Origin: Octopus vulgaris
Lineage: Eukaryota
Assembly (NCBI GenBank): GCA_951406725.2
Contig: OX597838.1
Location: 37,696,001 to 37,760,000 of the forward strand
Direction of reading: 5' to 3'
DNA length: 64,000 nt
Shown: piece by piece, positions 7,936 through 62,231 of the stretch
Layout of the letters: the number at the start of each line of letters is the position of its first letter
How positions within the stretch are numbered: the stretch's first letter is position 1
Notes under the pieces: model-generated
The model's database searches: none
Seen by the model: only the letters and a program-made list of their open reading frames with translations
Told to the model about the DNA's origin: nothing
Program-made: the position numbers and the translations under genes

Positions 7936-8508
7936 TTCGAATCTTTGGACTACGGCCATAGCCTGGCACCACCTCGACATAATTTTGTCGAACAAAGTTA
8001 TCTTTCTTATTTGGAGTCTGGTACACATTTCATCGGTCTCTCTGGCCAAACTTCCAGATAAAAGGGGACATAAACAAACCAATTCGCGTTGTCAAGAGGT
8101 GACGGGGAACAAATACAAAAGCATTCACAACGAGCAAGAGCATACACAAGATCGGAAAGTGTCGCTGAAGAGGTCACGAAAGATTTCCTGACAATGGCCA
8201 TAAGTTAAAATAAGAACAGTAATAAACGAGTGAAAAACTAATATATACGTGTGTTTAATTGGCGAAAAAAGAAAAGACCATCCCGAAATACAACAACATC
8301 TGCTTCAATACACGATTTCACATCAGGAATTTTGCAACACAAATTCATAAACGCATATATATATATATATATATATATATATATATATATATATATATAT
8401 ATATATATATATATATATATATATACATACATACATACATACATACATACATACATATATATATATATATATATATATATATATAGGGAATCCTTCTATA
8501 TTAAGTTA

Positions 8509-8599
8509 CCTACGGACGTACGTTTCGGAATCAAGTCATTGTAGAGCATAAAAATTAAATAATTATGTCTTACCTGACTATTTTCCTCCTCAGAGTAGG
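8509..8599 (-). ncRNA. Type I hammerhead ribozyme, copy 1
   Basis: cctact-CTGAGGA-ggaa...ttcc-GAAA-cgtacg-TC-cgtagg; GUC cleavage triplet; palindromic stem III. Confidence 0.8.
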
Positions 8600-9104
8600 A
8601 CTCTTCAATCATAAATAATTGCGTCTCAATTATTAATAATTGTGTATTAAATTTGAAGGCACTAGAAGACATCACCTCAACTCATGGTACTGGTAAGGTA
8701 AGCCTTACCAGTACCAACGAATTCAAAGGGTGAAAGAGAGTATGTCACCATCCACCTTCCGCAAGCGTGCTGCCAAAAATAAGATGCTACGGTTTTTTTA
8801 CTGGGATGAAATACAATTATCAATAATATAGGGTGAAATTAATTAATTCAGAAATAATCATTAATTTCATCAAGTAGAGTTCGGCATGTAAAAGACCCAT
8901 TCAAGGAAGGTTTAAGTAATACTAATTAATTAAGGGTTTAGCAACGATTTGCCTCACCACACACCGAATTTAGAAATAGCAGTCAAAAAGTTTTGGCTAT
9001 TCCTTCTACTTAAAAGGTAGATCCCAGTAACACCAAAGCACTTAAAAAGCAAACGACGCAGACAAAAGAGAAAGAAATGACGGAAATCATTCTATATTAA
9101 GTCA

Positions 9105-9196
9105 CCTACGGACGTACGTTTCGGAATTAAATCAATTGCAGAGCATAAAAATTAAATAATTATGTCTTACCTGACTATTTTCCTCCTCAGCGTAGG
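9105..9196 (-). ncRNA. Type I hammerhead ribozyme, copy 2
   Basis: cctacg-CTGAGGA-ggaa...ttcc-GAAA-cgtacg-TC-cgtagg; perfect 6 bp stem I. Confidence 0.85.
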
Positions 9197-9367
9197 ACTC
9201 TTCAATCATAAATAATTGCGTCTCAATTATTAATAATTGTGTATTAAATTTGAAGGCACTAGAAGACATCACCGCAACTCATGGTATCAATAGCCAAAAC
9301 TTTTTGACTGCTATTTCTAAATTCGGTGTGTGGTGAGGCAAATCGTTGCTGAACCCTTAATTAATTA

Positions 9368-10253
9368 TATATATATATATATATATATATATATATATAT
9401 ATATATATATATATATATACAAACATACATATACATATACATATATACAAATACATACATATATATAAATATATACATATACATACATATATATAAATAT
9501 GTACATATATACAGATACATATATATATATATATACACTTATACATACATACATATATATATACATATATACATATACATACATATATATAAATATACAT
9601 ATATACATATACATACATATATATAAATATATACATATATACATATACATACATATATATATATACATATATCTACATATATATATATATATACATACAT
9701 ATGTATATATATACATATACCTACATACATATATACATATACATATATATATATATATATACATATGCCTACATAAGTATATACATATACACACATATAT
9801 ACATATACATATACATATATATATATATACATATACACATTTATATACATATACATATACATATATATATATATACATACATATACATAGATATACATAT
9901 ATATATACTTACATATACATATACATATACATATATACATATACACATACATATATATATATACATATATATATATACATAAATATACATATACATATAC
10001 ATGTATATATACATATACATATATATATACATATACATATATATAGATATATACATATACATATATATATACATATACATATACATATACATATACATAT
10101 ACATATATATATATATACATATACACATATATCTATACATATACACACATATATATATACATACATATACATATATATATATATATACATACATATACAT
10201 ATATATATATACATACATATACATATATATATATATATGCATACATATACATA
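9368..10253. repeat. Compound (TA)n/(TACATA)n microsatellite
   Basis: Directly visible. Confidence 0.95.
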
Positions 10254-10254
10254 T

Positions 10255-59780: not shown

Positions 59781-59953
59781 GTAAAGAATATTTGTCAACA
59801 TAATGTGGCAATCCTGATTAGGACGAATGTTACTGTTATATAGCCCCAGAAAACATCGTTTCCAGTTGGAGACCATGTTTTCAGTAAACACTTGGTAACT
59901 GTAACATTCGTCCTAATCAGGACTGTCACATTATGTTGGCAAATAATCTTTAC
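59781..59953. repeat. Inverted repeat with arms of about 58 bp between TA tracts
   Basis: 59781-59838 vs 59896-59953; related sequence at 22470-22520. Confidence 0.75.
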
Positions 59954-60019
59954 TCTATATACATATATGTGTGTGTGTAACCCCACGGCCACTTAATCGT
60001 AGACTTCAACATTGACCTT

Positions 60020-61217
60020 AGACACCCATCCACGGTTATAGTACTCTGCTTTATTAAGTCTCCAAAATATAATGCTTGATAAATGATACTTGATGTTAGG
60101 ACAATGGATGGAAATTATTAATCGTTTGATAGCAAAATCAGCAAGTTAATTATTTTAATGACGTTATTCGGTAACTGAAGACTATATCAAAATAGGAACT
60201 AAGGTCAAAGAAAAAATTTTTTAAATGACGTATTCTATTTTGAGGAAAACGGTTAAAGAATCGTATGAAATAATTTTCAAAGTTTCGTAGAATATACAAA
60301 TATATAAACGTTATTTCAGATAAGCTTTTTTTGTCATACTTACTGATTAAATATACGAGTTCTTTATAATTTCCACGATTATTAAAGCCTTCAAATTCAA
60401 AATGACCCTGAAACGATAATTCCTGGAGGCCTAAAAAACACAACATCGATCAATCGTTGCAGAATGGATCTGTTTCATCTAACTTTCTCATTATAATGTT
60501 GTATGCTTTGATTTTTACATGAATCTAATTGTAAGTCTACGAGAACATTCCCGAATATTTTAAGATCTATCGAAGATTTTATGAGAACACTCGTGCATAG
60601 CCATATGTAAATTATTTAAATCATCATAGCCTTTATCATTCCAAACATTCCTTTCTAAGCAAAAACGTAAACACGGCCAACAGAATAATTTATTAAAAGC
60701 AACACTTCCAGTTAACCATTTTTTCTTTCCATACAAATTAACCTGAAATTGTCTCGTGAATTTCTTGTAGCTTCGCAAAATAGGTAAATTCGGTGTTGGT
60801 CTCCCACCATTTATAATTAATTATTTTCCATCGAAGTCTCTTTTCGAAAAACTATTTCTCAAAATATCGTTTATAACACACATTTCACTCATTTCGAAAA
60901 AGGCTGCACTTATATAAGAACCCACGTGGAAGCGTCAACTGTAAGTCAATTTCAACAAAACGGAAAACTAACCTTTGTTAAATTAATTTAAGAGTAATTA
61001 GCTACTTCTCAAATAAGAAATATAATATAGATTATATTTTTGTTTTCAGGACTCTACGAAAATATAATAGTGCAAACAGATGTTTTGGGTAAAAATATTC
61101 AAACTGACTGCCAGGTTATTCCAACATTTCAGCTGGCAAACTCAAGAAGTAACTATTTTATCTAATTTTCTTATGATATGTATGCAAGCCTTGCATACCT
61201 GAGAGTGCACACCCCTG
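60020..61217 (-). mobile_element. Decayed, internally deleted hAT transposon (ZMYM1/DUF4371-like transposase)
   Basis: KKKWLTGSVAFNKLFCWPCL and FLGLQELSFQGH...NRGNYKELV motifs; 5' end CAGGGGTGTGCAC. Confidence 0.75.
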
Positions 61218-61464
61218 ATATATATATATACATATGAAAGGAAAAGGTGTTCAGATATGATGGTTTAAATATATATATATATATTATATATATATATATA
61301 TATATATATATATATATATATATATATATATATATATATACTGGATGGTTGTAAATATATATATATATATAATATATATATATATATATATATATATATA
61401 TATATATATATATATATATATATATATATATATATATATATATATATTACGGGGATATACTCTC

Positions 61465-61900
61465 TCTTTACTCTTTTACTTGTTTCAGTCATTTGACTGC
61501 GGCCATGCTGGAGCACCGCCTTTAGTCGAGCAAATCGACCCCGGGACTTATTCTTTGTAAGCCCAGTACTTATTCTATCGGTCTCTTTTGCCGAACCGCT
61601 AAGTTACGGGGACGTAAACACATCGGCATCGGTTGTCAAGCAATGCTAGGGGGACAAACACAGACACACAAACACACACACACACACACACACACACACA
61701 CATATATATATATATATATATATATATACATATATACGACAGGCTTCTTTCAGTTTCCGTCTACCAAATCCACTCATAAGGCATTGGTCGGCCCGGGTCT
61801 ATAGCAGAAGACACTTGCCCAAGATGCTACGCAGTGGGACTGAACCCGGAACCATGTGGTTGGTAAGCAAGCTACTTACCACACAGCCACTCCTGCGCCT
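61465..61900 (-). mobile_element. SINE family A
   Basis: Full-length. Confidence 0.92.
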
Positions 61901-61914
61901 ATATATATATATAT

Positions 61915-62231
61915 ACTTGCATTGCAAGTGACTTGATCTGAGATCGTGTGATGAAAGAAAAATAATTGCTGCGTGGAAGATGTTTGTAAGGCATTTGAGA
62001 ACACAAGAAAAAAATAAACGTTAGATTCATTTCAACATTTAAATTTAATTTGTGTCGAAATATTTTCGTCGCTTTGAAGCCGCGCCATGTTCACTGAAAA
62101 ATACTTCGTGCTGCATCACAAACGTTTCTTAGTGAACAGGCCGCAGTTTCCAAGTGACGACCTGTTTTGTTGTGGTTTCCCAGTGACGAAAATATTTTGA
62201 CACAAAATTAAATTTAAATGTTGAAGTGAAC
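61915..62231. repeat. PLE-end-like repeat with an inverted arm
   Basis: 62025-62096 is mirrored, with an internal duplication, at 62131-62231; homologous to 23138-23305. Confidence 0.7.

Follow-up and report, generated by a model that had tools for sequence, protein, structure and literature searches.

The inserts and the PLE of the octopus window

The window analyzed here, a 64-kb stretch of the Octopus vulgaris genome, holds eight two-armed inserts (L1 to L8), two further cases with inverted micro-arms of 14 and 16 nt (at 57836 and 56030), one-armed relatives and a 5'-truncated PLE (Table 1). The PLE encodes an RT followed by a C-terminal GIY-YIG domain in a single ORF, with Pfam matches to RVT_1 (E=1.5e-8) and GIY-YIG (E=2.9e-4; 21.5 bits, just below the cut-off of 22.6). 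It has 618 homologs, of which the named eukaryotic ones are bivalve, and its full-length homologs share its domains. The translation shows a CX2-5CxxC linker upstream of GIY-YIG and two Cys within the core, the definition of Neptune/Nematis-type EN+ PLEs (PMC8557442); the element is putatively Neptune-type by this linker, which Nematis shares, rather than by an RT tree. It is a candidate for the type of helper enzyme, and, its HHR and ORF having the same sense, it serves to calibrate polarity. This ORF, together with the PLE-type minimal HHR features in the window, bears out the PLE connection made by the sequence-only reading of this DNA. Comparison of the inserts with the PLE ORF gave no sequence tie except a weak resemblance of L2 to the PLE 3' end. 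The stretch 4019-4246 has no PLE homology and was rejected as an unrecognized left arm of that element. A degenerate PLE piece lies at 44276. Searches for related loci in prokaryotic genome contigs returned none in one case and two in another; the prokaryote-contig locus L001 has repeats at chance level only and no HHR found by the scanner, and is probably a eukaryotic contaminant of a MAG.

Table 1. Features of the window (64-kb coordinates; +, plus-sense; -, minus-sense)
Feature	Positions	Strand	Remarks
PLE, putatively Neptune-type, 5'-truncated	4313..6765	+	RT, CX4CxxC linker, GIY-YIG; flanked by (TA)n on both sides; without an inverted arm
U3:A8 HHR of this PLE	6674-6711	+	HHR descriptor scan
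L1 long arm	8486..9286	-	1.3 tandem units (~597 nt) carrying two HHRs; 3' end on (TA)n; 5' terminus within the counterpart of a 14-bp hairpin (8686-8716)
L1 short arm	9289..9367	+	copy of 9001->8923; no HHR; 2-nt TA microhomology with (TA)n at end
L2	13336..13598	polarity weak	arms 13367-13453 and 13513-13598, each beginning at an ACCGGT palindrome; left arm with ~30 extra nt at its outer end, resembling a PLE "tail"
L3	13652..13936	polarity not established	arms 13652-13709 and 13750-13807; right side continues to 13935
L4	20250..20480	left arm probably -	long left arm, 49-nt right arm, 7-nt centre
Neptune RT fragment	20911..21447	-	3'-truncated within ORF at (TA)n; second arm not seen
HHR segment	21861..23085	+	plus-strand HHR 22743-22853; 3' end on (TA)n; 29-bp inverted pair 22561-22631 may be a head-to-head junction (doubtful)
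One-armed L8-family copy	23123..23304	-	G3:C8 variant minimal HHR 23296-23246; (TA)n on both sides
L5 left arm	26813..27409	-	597 nt long, from an HHR unit of 478 nt; HHR at 27124-27077; 2-nt microhomology with (GA)n at outer end
L5 right arm	27409..28024	+	616 nt long; HHR at 27831-27878; 10/11 match to (TA)n at outer end
Third L4-family copy, one-armed	29280..29456	+	inside a TA-bounded segment; nhmmer E=3.4e-4 and alignment
Partial-tandem element outside L1-L8	56030..56336		unit ~211-229 nt; no polarity; 16-nt inverted micro-arm at left (TA)n, 56030-56045 = rc 56197-56212
Partial-tandem HHR element outside L1-L8	57836..58524	-	HHR 58087-58036, related to L1 family; 3'-out; plus-sense 14-nt micro-arm, 58511-58524 = rc 58293-58306
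L6	58639..59641	both	minus-sense arm 58639-59027; plus-sense arm 59104-59482, HHR 59355-59440; centre a hairpin with 3-nt loop; 59483-59641 is element tail or flank
L7	59779..59955		symmetric imperfect palindrome; no HHR, polarity or left (TA)n
L8	61915..62233	family-based	older head-to-head pair of G3:C8-HHR family; near-symmetric centre; right end off (TA)n

Inverted arms were confirmed at all eight loci first cited. The arms match at 78/79 positions in L1 (8485), 56/58 in L3 (13652), 47/49 in L4 (20250), 55/60 in L7 (59781) and 52/60 in L8 (61915); those of L2 (13367; ~80 nt) differ by one substitution and by 2 nt in a T-run, those of L5 (26813; ~480 nt) by one substitution and two homopolymer indels, and those of L6 (58639; ~380 nt) by five substitutions and a 10-nt indel. 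Because the arms of each pair differ, the inserts are not library mirrors. Library or assembly chimeras at TA tracts, which the sequence-only reading had raised against its own proposal, find some encouragement in the near-identical L5 arms, where two of the three differences are homopolymer indels, but substitutions separate the arms at 8/8 loci (up to 13%), arms are offset or permuted, junctions follow element biology, and mirroring stops short of the unique flank at every insert. We give chimeras next to no likelihood, and reject the artefact reading on the arm substitutions and the unmirrored flanks. Microsatellite flanks are present at most inserts, as had been proposed, but L7 has no (TA)n on its left and L8 none on its right, and the left flank of L5 is (GA)n.

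Arm ends differ in L1-L6, L8 and the 57836 insert, and their arms derive from the interior of HHR elements that are longer or tandem. Both features, like the existence of one-armed family copies, speak against the inserts being MITEs (derivatives of DNA transposons that bear terminal inverted repeats and sit in TA), an explanation barely tenable for the set. What favors it is L7, which lacks an HHR and has ends that are the same in its two arms and in one more copy (3/3 ends), the fixed end being common to a half copy at 22435-22520, along with imperfect palindromes elsewhere, at 43914-44201 and 54379-54419. The fixed symmetric ends of L7 fit MITEs in TA, whereas the variable HHR-bearing arms of the others do not. 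L7 is probably MITE-like and outside the pattern; that it is itself a MITE has about even odds, given that no TSD is seen there by eye and that the window has one further half copy.

HHRs, tandem units and arm polarity

HHR calls rest on our own descriptor, applied with a shuffle control: the window gave 11 HHR-like matches at a score of at least 11, and each of 10 shuffles gave none. Two of the 11, at 27015 and 27462, are mirror copies of one long-loop match and probably spurious. Type I (minimal) HHRs with a conserved core were found in L1, L5, L6, the 57836 insert and the L8 family; with one mismatch allowed, the descriptor detected none in L2, L3, L4, L7 or the 56030 insert, which may be HHR-less pieces. 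Hammerheads were absent among the matches listed in an Rfam scan of the window (150 of 380), all of them microsatellite-driven miRNA matches, and from the two irrelevant matches for L5 alone; MFE z-scores are mostly unremarkable. More-than-unit inserts reveal tandem units of 478 nt in L5, ~597 nt in L1, ~540 nt in the 57836 insert and ~220 nt in the 56030 insert. The HHR inserts appear pLTR/retrozyme-like, with putative self-cleavage, circular RNA in vivo and mobilization by a PLE protein.

The claim that the left arm is minus-sense and the right arm plus-sense, with sense 3' ends outward (3'-out), stands for the four of eight inserts in which an HHR fixes it (L1, L5, L6 and L8) and is backed by a motif in L4, but is weak in L2 and L3 and has no basis in L7. 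The HHRs of L1 lie on the minus strand of the long left arm, the right arm being placed through the stretch that it copies; L5 has an HHR on the minus strand in the left arm and on the plus strand in the right; L6 has a minus-strand HHR with one core mismatch and a plus-strand HHR; and L8 is read through the family copy at 23123-23304 with its G3:C8 variant. The L4 motif is common to two HHR-polarised elements (p=0.002 and 0.006) and recurs in a second alignment set (p=0.003 twice among 238 tests, of which 7 reached p<=0.02 with ~5 expected by chance); nhmmer gave no link of L4 to these two elements. Pairwise alignment and nhmmer gave weak, inconsistent or absent polarity for L2, L3, L7 and the 56030 insert: L2 aligned at p=0.014-0.02, which does not establish its polarity, and L3 at p=0.036-0.046, unreproduced in the second set, where a weak opposite-strand match appeared (p=0.01). 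None of the five HHR-polarised two-armed inserts (L1, L5, L6, L8 and 57836) is 3'-in (one-sided p=0.03).

A tendency rather than a rule

Exact terminal inverted arms of at least 12 nt occur in 7/60 inter-microsatellite segments of at least 80 nt, at 8/120 segment ends against means of 0.15 in the shuffle null and 0.6 in the interior null, in a test that misses L4, L7 and L8. They are present in 4/9 HHR/PLE segments and 3/51 others (Fisher p=0.007, with the degenerate PLE piece at 44276 among the others), and none was found at copies of an abundant SINE-like repeat or at two LINE RT fragments. Three of nine HHR/ORF-polarised elements lack a second arm (4313-6765, 20911-21447 and 23123-23304), and in a fourth, at 22743, it is doubtful. 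Because of these three, the head-to-head 3'-out layout is a tendency and not the "recurrent rule" originally put forward, to which L7 does not belong either; one-armed copies rule out that every insert is two-armed.

This distribution bears on whether rearrangement at the DNA level, by template switching or inversion at fragile (TA)n, duplicated tract-adjacent DNA after insertion. Such events would also leave 3' ends outward where elements were already 3'-anchored. Since (TA)n is self-complementary, a TA run inside an element is in effect an inverted repeat of the flanking tract. Yet other DNA next to TA tracts seldom has terminal arms (the 3/51 segments above), and unique flank is never mirrored. 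The centre of L5 has no TA run of the reciprocal kind, which argues against reciprocal DNA inversion, and we reject it for that insert. We regard DNA-level rearrangement as very unlikely.

Template geometry and junctions

On a multimer of the 478-nt unit, the two arms of L5 occupy template positions 16-631 and 631-1227, contiguous within 1 nt; both cross a cleavage site and neither is contained in the other. Of 11 nt at the internal priming site, 10 match (TA)n, and on the template this site adjoins the 5' end of the left arm. L5 thus appears to have the geometry of L1-type twin priming on a multimeric template (L1-type elements are unrelated to our insert L1). Abutment by chance has a probability of 0.006 for L5 alone and of 0.03 for at least one of the four tandem-unit inserts (±1 nt), and was noticed post hoc; it is exact in 1/4 testable inserts, the other gaps being ~233, 311 and 45 nt by hand. 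The gaps at L1, 57836 and 56030 fit twin priming on one RNA but discriminate nothing, and an AT-rich spot could draw both truncation and priming at L5.

Arms of L2, L3, L4, L6 and L8 overlap on the monomer and therefore call for a template that is multimeric or circular, or for a pair of RNAs (dual priming, PMC2837659). Two-sided priming, as first proposed, is supported by the lack of nesting between the arms at L5 and, probably, at L4, but in its classic form on a monomeric RNA it cannot produce overlapping arms. Dual priming on two separate RNAs in a dimeric RNP, with the L5 abutment coincidental, is favored by these overlaps; the concept is defined for L1-type elements (PMC2837659) and a dimer model is available (PMC11167929). 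It predicts no positional link between arms, however, and L5 has one (P ~0.03); nor are two different families ever combined in one insert. We consider it rather improbable.

The nesting of arms bears on a further possibility, in which a target-primed cDNA (or antisense transcript) folds at a palindrome, the RT copies back, and the end joins the other (TA)n via TA microhomology. Self-priming on an antisense template is the published proposal for head-to-head PLEs (PMC3846280). Because such snap-back or antisense self-priming yields the same 3'-out layout, polarity is no proof of twin priming and fails as the signature for which it had been taken. The hairpin at the centre of L6 and the near-symmetric centres of L4, L7 and L8 favor snap-back, as do the palindromic start of both L2 arms and the nesting of L1 and of the micro-arms; L3 is probably nested too. 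The tight or near-symmetric centres of L6, L8 and L4 are what self-priming predicts and weigh against twin priming, but junction palindromes as such would not discriminate, as two cDNA 3' ends could also anneal at a template palindrome. On the other side, snap-back makes L5 only with an extra slip and a coincidence, the inverted microhomology that it implies is missing at the L1 junction, and it cannot make L4 if the centre is part of the short arm. That 7-nt centre aligns better with the right arm, and the L4 arms are therefore probably not nested; post-insertion central deletions can create false non-nesting. Snap-back is unlikely overall, though a serious contender.

Microhomology, invoked from the start for priming, is seen at the outer ends but hardly at the central junctions. 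At least 2 nt are shared at 8/12 scorable outer junctions (2.8 expected, P=0.0015), and at 6/10 without the two strongest (P=0.009); for summed length, P=0.05. Four of 16 junctions with non-periodic flanks were left out (L4 right, L7 right, L8 right and 22561 left), the L2 flank, with one interruption, was scored as (AT)n, and the 56030 micro-arm junction entered conservatively as 0 nt, being 3 nt by sequence. L2 shares 7 nt between the target and the internal priming site. Central junctions have 0 nt in L1 (plus a 2-nt insert), 1 nt in L5 and 57836, and 1 nt in L4 if its centre belongs to the right arm. Short TA overlaps could stem from microsatellite growth out of AT-rich element ends, and Poseidon RT begins in vitro at RNA sites non-homologous to the target (PMC11167929); both points count against the mechanism favored below.

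Proposed mechanism

The architecture, the HHR polarity in five inserts, the read-through of the cleavage site, the abutting non-nested L5 arms and the enrichment of outer microhomology are seen directly. We favor, at a probability of roughly 0.55, that several non-autonomous HHR-bearing PLE derivatives and truncated Neptune PLEs were inserted by twin priming, the template being multimeric or circular RNA or, for the second arm, another RNA molecule. In this scheme we infer which enzyme acted, in what order the events took place and that a single RNA served as template. A Neptune-type RT/GIY-YIG protein would open both strands of (TA)n or a similar dinucleotide tract, a presumptive role for the GIY-YIG endonuclease at these inserts. 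From one 3'-OH, cDNA synthesis would start with little sequence match (0-4 nt) on a multimeric (or circular) RNA left uncleaved; the other 3'-OH would often find an AT-rich priming site farther upstream in that RNA, or else use another RNA molecule. The two 5'-truncated cDNAs, overlapping by 0-1 nt where their ends are joined, would lie head to head with sense 3' ends outward; were the second end unprimed, the cDNA would be joined directly to (TA)n, leaving a one-armed copy. In L5, the left arm would be the first cDNA and the right arm the second, primed internally. In vitro, a PLE protein cleaves and extends both strands, uses uncleaved RNA and is a predicted dimer (PMC11167929), and PMC4209133 proposes more-than-unit reverse transcription of circular PLE RNA. 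The mechanistic lead is credible, with L5 as its main locus.

More tentatively, and with somewhat less than even confidence, PLE head-to-head inserts in general may arise when both ends of a microsatellite cut by a PLE engage in twin priming on one sense RNA that is multimeric or circular and uncleaved, no antisense template being required; tandem-unit retrozyme inserts like 26813-28024 would record this exactly, the first cDNA having run up to the second primer, and many copies that look one-armed would hide arms of 10-20 nt. A defined tandem unit serves here as a ruler: measured modulo its length, the offset from the 5' end of one arm to the 3' end of the other tells twin priming, dual priming and snap-back apart with nothing more than the genome sequence. 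If twin priming is true, the inversion mechanisms of PLEs and L1-type elements are united and retrozymes are inserted from uncleaved RNA. For annotation, such palindromes would otherwise be filed as MITEs or assembly errors.

Comparison with known systems

As the sequence-only reading noted, inverted PLE termini are known: the head-to-head layout and the (TA)n bias have been published (PMC3846280, PMC8557442), the proposals being antisense self-priming or a mechanism left open, and PMC8557442 describes how PLEs form such tandem and inverted inserts as an unanswered question. Architecture and polarity are thus not new; the abutment of the L5 arms on a multimeric template is. EN+ PLE inserts with an inverted pLTR or 5'-truncated copy (Penelope/Poseidon, Neptune, Naiad; PMC8557442, PMC3846280) share the head-to-head orientation, partial tandems, the optional 30-40-nt tail, palindromes at some junctions and the (TA)n bias. 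Most of the octopus inserts, in contrast, are short HHR elements without coding sequence, their arms can be as short as 14-16 nt, and one case has exact template abutment.

L1-type twin or dual priming (PMC2837659) shares the inverted upstream and forward downstream pieces, a stronger target match at the internal priming site and little homology at the internal junction. The octopus inserts differ in having neither poly(A) nor a visible TSD, in their multimeric or circular template, in the overlap of most arms in unit coordinates and probably in the enzyme, a GIY-YIG PLE protein.

With metazoan non-LTR retrozymes and PLE minimal HHRs (PMC7229834, PMC4209133, bioRxiv 10.64898/2026.07.22.740005), the inserts share a Type I HHR within tandem units that measure a few hundred nucleotides, more-than-unit inserts, the U3:A8 core, an extra nucleotide before stem II and a palindromic stem III. 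Opposite-strand HHR pairs 100-700 bp apart had already been noted for Schistosoma. The G3:C8 core of the L8 family is absent from the descriptions in the part of PMC4209133 available to us. Retrozymes are presented as head-to-tail arrays, whereas L5 is a head-to-head insert, and its 478-nt unit exceeds the 350-390 bp given for mussel retrozyme units.

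Inverted arms and their association with PLE-type sequence

Self-comparison of the window recovered inverted arms at all eight loci for which the sequence-only reading had claimed them (inserts L1 to L8; see table), and in none of the eight alignments are the arms identical: substitutions range from 1 per ~480 nt (L5) to 7 in 60 (L8). Because the flanks of the listed inserts are not mirrored and their arms are offset from each other, a chimeric origin is disfavoured. The AT-rich animal DNA of the window, whose abundant SINE-like repeat suggests an octopus as host, contains 67 microsatellite tracts with TA; among 60 segments between microsatellites, exact inverted arms 12 nt or longer occur at 8 of 120 ends (in 7 segments), where two null models predict 0.15 or 0.6. 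Two further arms came to light, of 14 nt at 58511-58524 (0.018 expected over 120 ends) and of 16 nt at 56030-56045 (<0.01). General fragility of DNA adjoining (TA)n could be suggested as the source of terminal arms, but terminal arms are specific to segments with hammerhead ribozyme (HHR) or Penelope-like element (PLE) sequence (4/9, versus 3/51 of the others; p=0.007), which argues against it.

The architecture is that of known PLE/retrozyme-type inserts, here of several non-autonomous families. The earlier observation is confirmed in part. Two arms are no recurrent rule, since the nine elements polarised by HHR or ORF comprise five two-armed, three plainly one-armed and one doubtful case, and the placement of the inserts in (TA)n fails at L7, which lacks the left tract. 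L7 reads better as a MITE-like palindrome: its two arms and a half copy at 22435 share an identical end.

Features of the window
Feature	Position	Remarks
5'-truncated PLE ORF	4315-5943	RT and GIY-YIG domains
Further PLE piece	20911-21447	minus strand
Further PLE piece, degenerate	44276-44580	
Inverted-arm inserts L1 to L4	8485-9367, 13367-13598, 13652-13936, 20250-20480	
Inverted-arm inserts L5 to L8	26813-28024, 58639-59641, 59781-59953, 61915-62231	
Micro-arm inserts 57836 and 56033	57836-58524, 56030-56336	
One-armed L8-family copy	23123-23304	
~330-nt repeat	1-315, 21460-21816, 23974-24338, 30084-30473, 46364-46768, 48621-49012, 61481-61899	abundant; internal microsatellite; copies ~80-96% identical
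Second dispersed repeat family	39081-41091, 53096-53130, 55103-55317, 1358-1427	both orientations; copies 1.5-2 kb apart
Non-PLE RT fragments	10259-11086, 34741-36599	5'-truncated end near TA-rich tract in each
Imperfect palindromes without (TA)n bounds	43914-44201, 54379-54419, 19186-19732, 22561-22631	from self-comparison
Homogeneous minisatellites	30713-31317, 39391-39576	24 bp x25; 23 bp x8
TA-bounded, very AT-rich segments	586-1042, 4019-4246	~52 nt in common, opposite orientation

Polarity of the arms

A hammerhead descriptor that tolerated covariation at 3:8 and one added nucleotide ahead of stem II found, at a score threshold of 11, 11 matches in the window and none in each of 10 shuffles; two of the 11 are mirror copies of a single match that is probably spurious. 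Both the U3:A8 core and this added nucleotide have been described for PLEs (PMC4209133). The motifs are absent from the 150 of 380 Rfam matches listed for the whole window and from a scan of L5 alone. In the PLE the HHR of the 3' region runs in the ORF sense, which calibrates the polarity method. The orientation in which both sense 3' ends face the flanks, claimed as a rule wherever polarity can be read, is borne out by HHR at L1, L5, L6 and L8 (the last via its family copy at 23123), as it is at 57836 (5/5, p=0.03); a shared motif makes it probable for L4, the signal is weak at L2 and L3, and no polarity was found for L7 or 56033. Such polarity of PLE inserts is already known, and it does not serve as a signature of twin priming, because a folded-back cDNA yields the identical layout.

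Origin of the second arm

An inverted 5'-truncated copy adjoining the 5' end of PLEs, tails of 30-40 nt and a (TA)n bias are described in PMC8557442, where the mechanism is called undefined. The head-to-head arrangement is the commonest in PMC3846280, where self-priming on antisense templates is put forward as its origin; PMC4209133 reports opposite-strand HHR pairs spaced 100-700 bp apart and proposes that circular RNA is copied beyond one unit. A Poseidon protein cleaves and extends both strands, accepts uncleaved RNA and initiates at non-homologous internal sites (PMC11167929). Twin and dual priming are defined in PMC2837659; among the papers listed for Penelope together with twin priming, none appears to propose such priming for PLE inversions.

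The earlier interpretation by twin priming finds partial support, and the best reading, with a probability of about 0.55, is priming from two ends on uncleaved multimeric RNA, which would be the template for both arms. L5 has a unit of 478 nt (period check 138/139 and 119/119). The 3' end of its right arm (27409-28024) and the 5' base of its left arm (27409 to 26813) both fall at unit position 27546; on a linear multimer numbered from a cleavage site the arms adjoin, at 16-631 and 631-1227, together spanning 2.5 units and each crossing an HHR cleavage site. At the right-arm end the template matches (TA)n at 10/11 nt, the left-arm end sits on (GA)n with 2 nt shared, and the centre has a 1-nt overlap without a TA run. 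This geometry is that of L1-retrotransposon twin priming, in which the second primer halts the first cDNA; the first cDNA of L5 would end there. Abutment within 1 nt has a chance of 0.006 for L5 alone and of 0.03 in any of four tandem-unit inserts (0.11 at ±5 nt) and, having been spotted post hoc, is a lead and not proof; the remaining three, with gaps of ~233, 311 and 45 nt, are compatible with twin priming and uninformative. A reciprocal DNA inversion, which would be expected to leave TA at the centre of L5, was rejected, there being none.

Snap-back, by which a cDNA folds back to give the second arm in the same layout, appears somewhat unlikely. The tight central hairpin of L6 (readable as nested, provided 59483-59641 is flank), the near-symmetry of L8 and the nesting of insert L1 suit it equally well, yet at L5 it demands an additional slip and a coincidence, and L4 is probably not nested, since comparison with a third family copy places its centre more readily in the right arm. 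Palindromic centres are themselves indecisive, as two antisense cDNAs could anneal at a template palindrome. Dual priming on two separate RNAs is quite improbable, and two or more insertion routes may be at work.

As to microhomology at the priming ends, 8 of the 12 scorable outer junctions have 2 nt or more in common with the repeat of the flank (2.8 expected, P=0.0015), and 6/10 do so without L2 and the right end of L5 (P=0.009); 4/16 were unscorable and one anchor error pushed a score down. This part of the claim stands above expectation, but most overlaps are 2 nt, and microsatellite growth out of AT-rich ends could mimic them. The value of the inserts lies in the arm-offset test that they allow.

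All three inter-arm differences of L5 lie in the doubly covered unit stretch (27680-27800 and its mirror) and none in the triply covered one, through either a heterogeneous template or assembly polishing. Insert L1 contains a 14-bp hairpin at 8686-8716 (z=-7.3), and its long arm has a 5' end 5 nt inside the equivalent of this stem, which suggests an RT stall. At 23085-23123, 58524-58639 and 13598-13652, distinct inserts abut end to end, in each case over one (TA)n tract, a pattern that fits more than one insertion into a tract.

Other elements of the window

Judged by its CX4CxxC linker, the PLE ORF is of the Neptune/Nematis type as defined in PMC8557442; bivalves are the source of its named eukaryotic homologs among the best 120 of 618. 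A Bacteroidota MAG contig bears a PLE-like ORF (1505-3505, 43% to the query), and proteins resembling it carry the Ca. Thiodiazotropha label among the homologs listed; both are probably host DNA within symbiont bins. Inverted arms are absent from the seven listed copies of the ~330-nt repeat and from the two non-PLE RT fragments. The palindrome at 43914 lies immediately upstream of the degenerate PLE piece. For the two TA-bounded segments no HHR or PLE link was found. The GC-rich segment 24774-26305, possibly a LINE ORF1, has two minus-strand ORFs (247 and 182 aa, the latter opening with a CCHC-like motif), neither matched in Pfam, followed by repeats of 107 bp (x3) and 29 bp (x2).

A hammerhead-like motif of the minimal type, in which the core is swapped to G3:C8, lies at 23296-23246 (minus strand), its family recurring at 61915-62233, with an extra nucleotide before stem II, a 7-bp stem I, a 5-bp stem II and a fold z of -2.4. 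G3:C8 is a mutant with partial rescue in PMC11167929, and this putative natural family may deserve attention as to cleavage.
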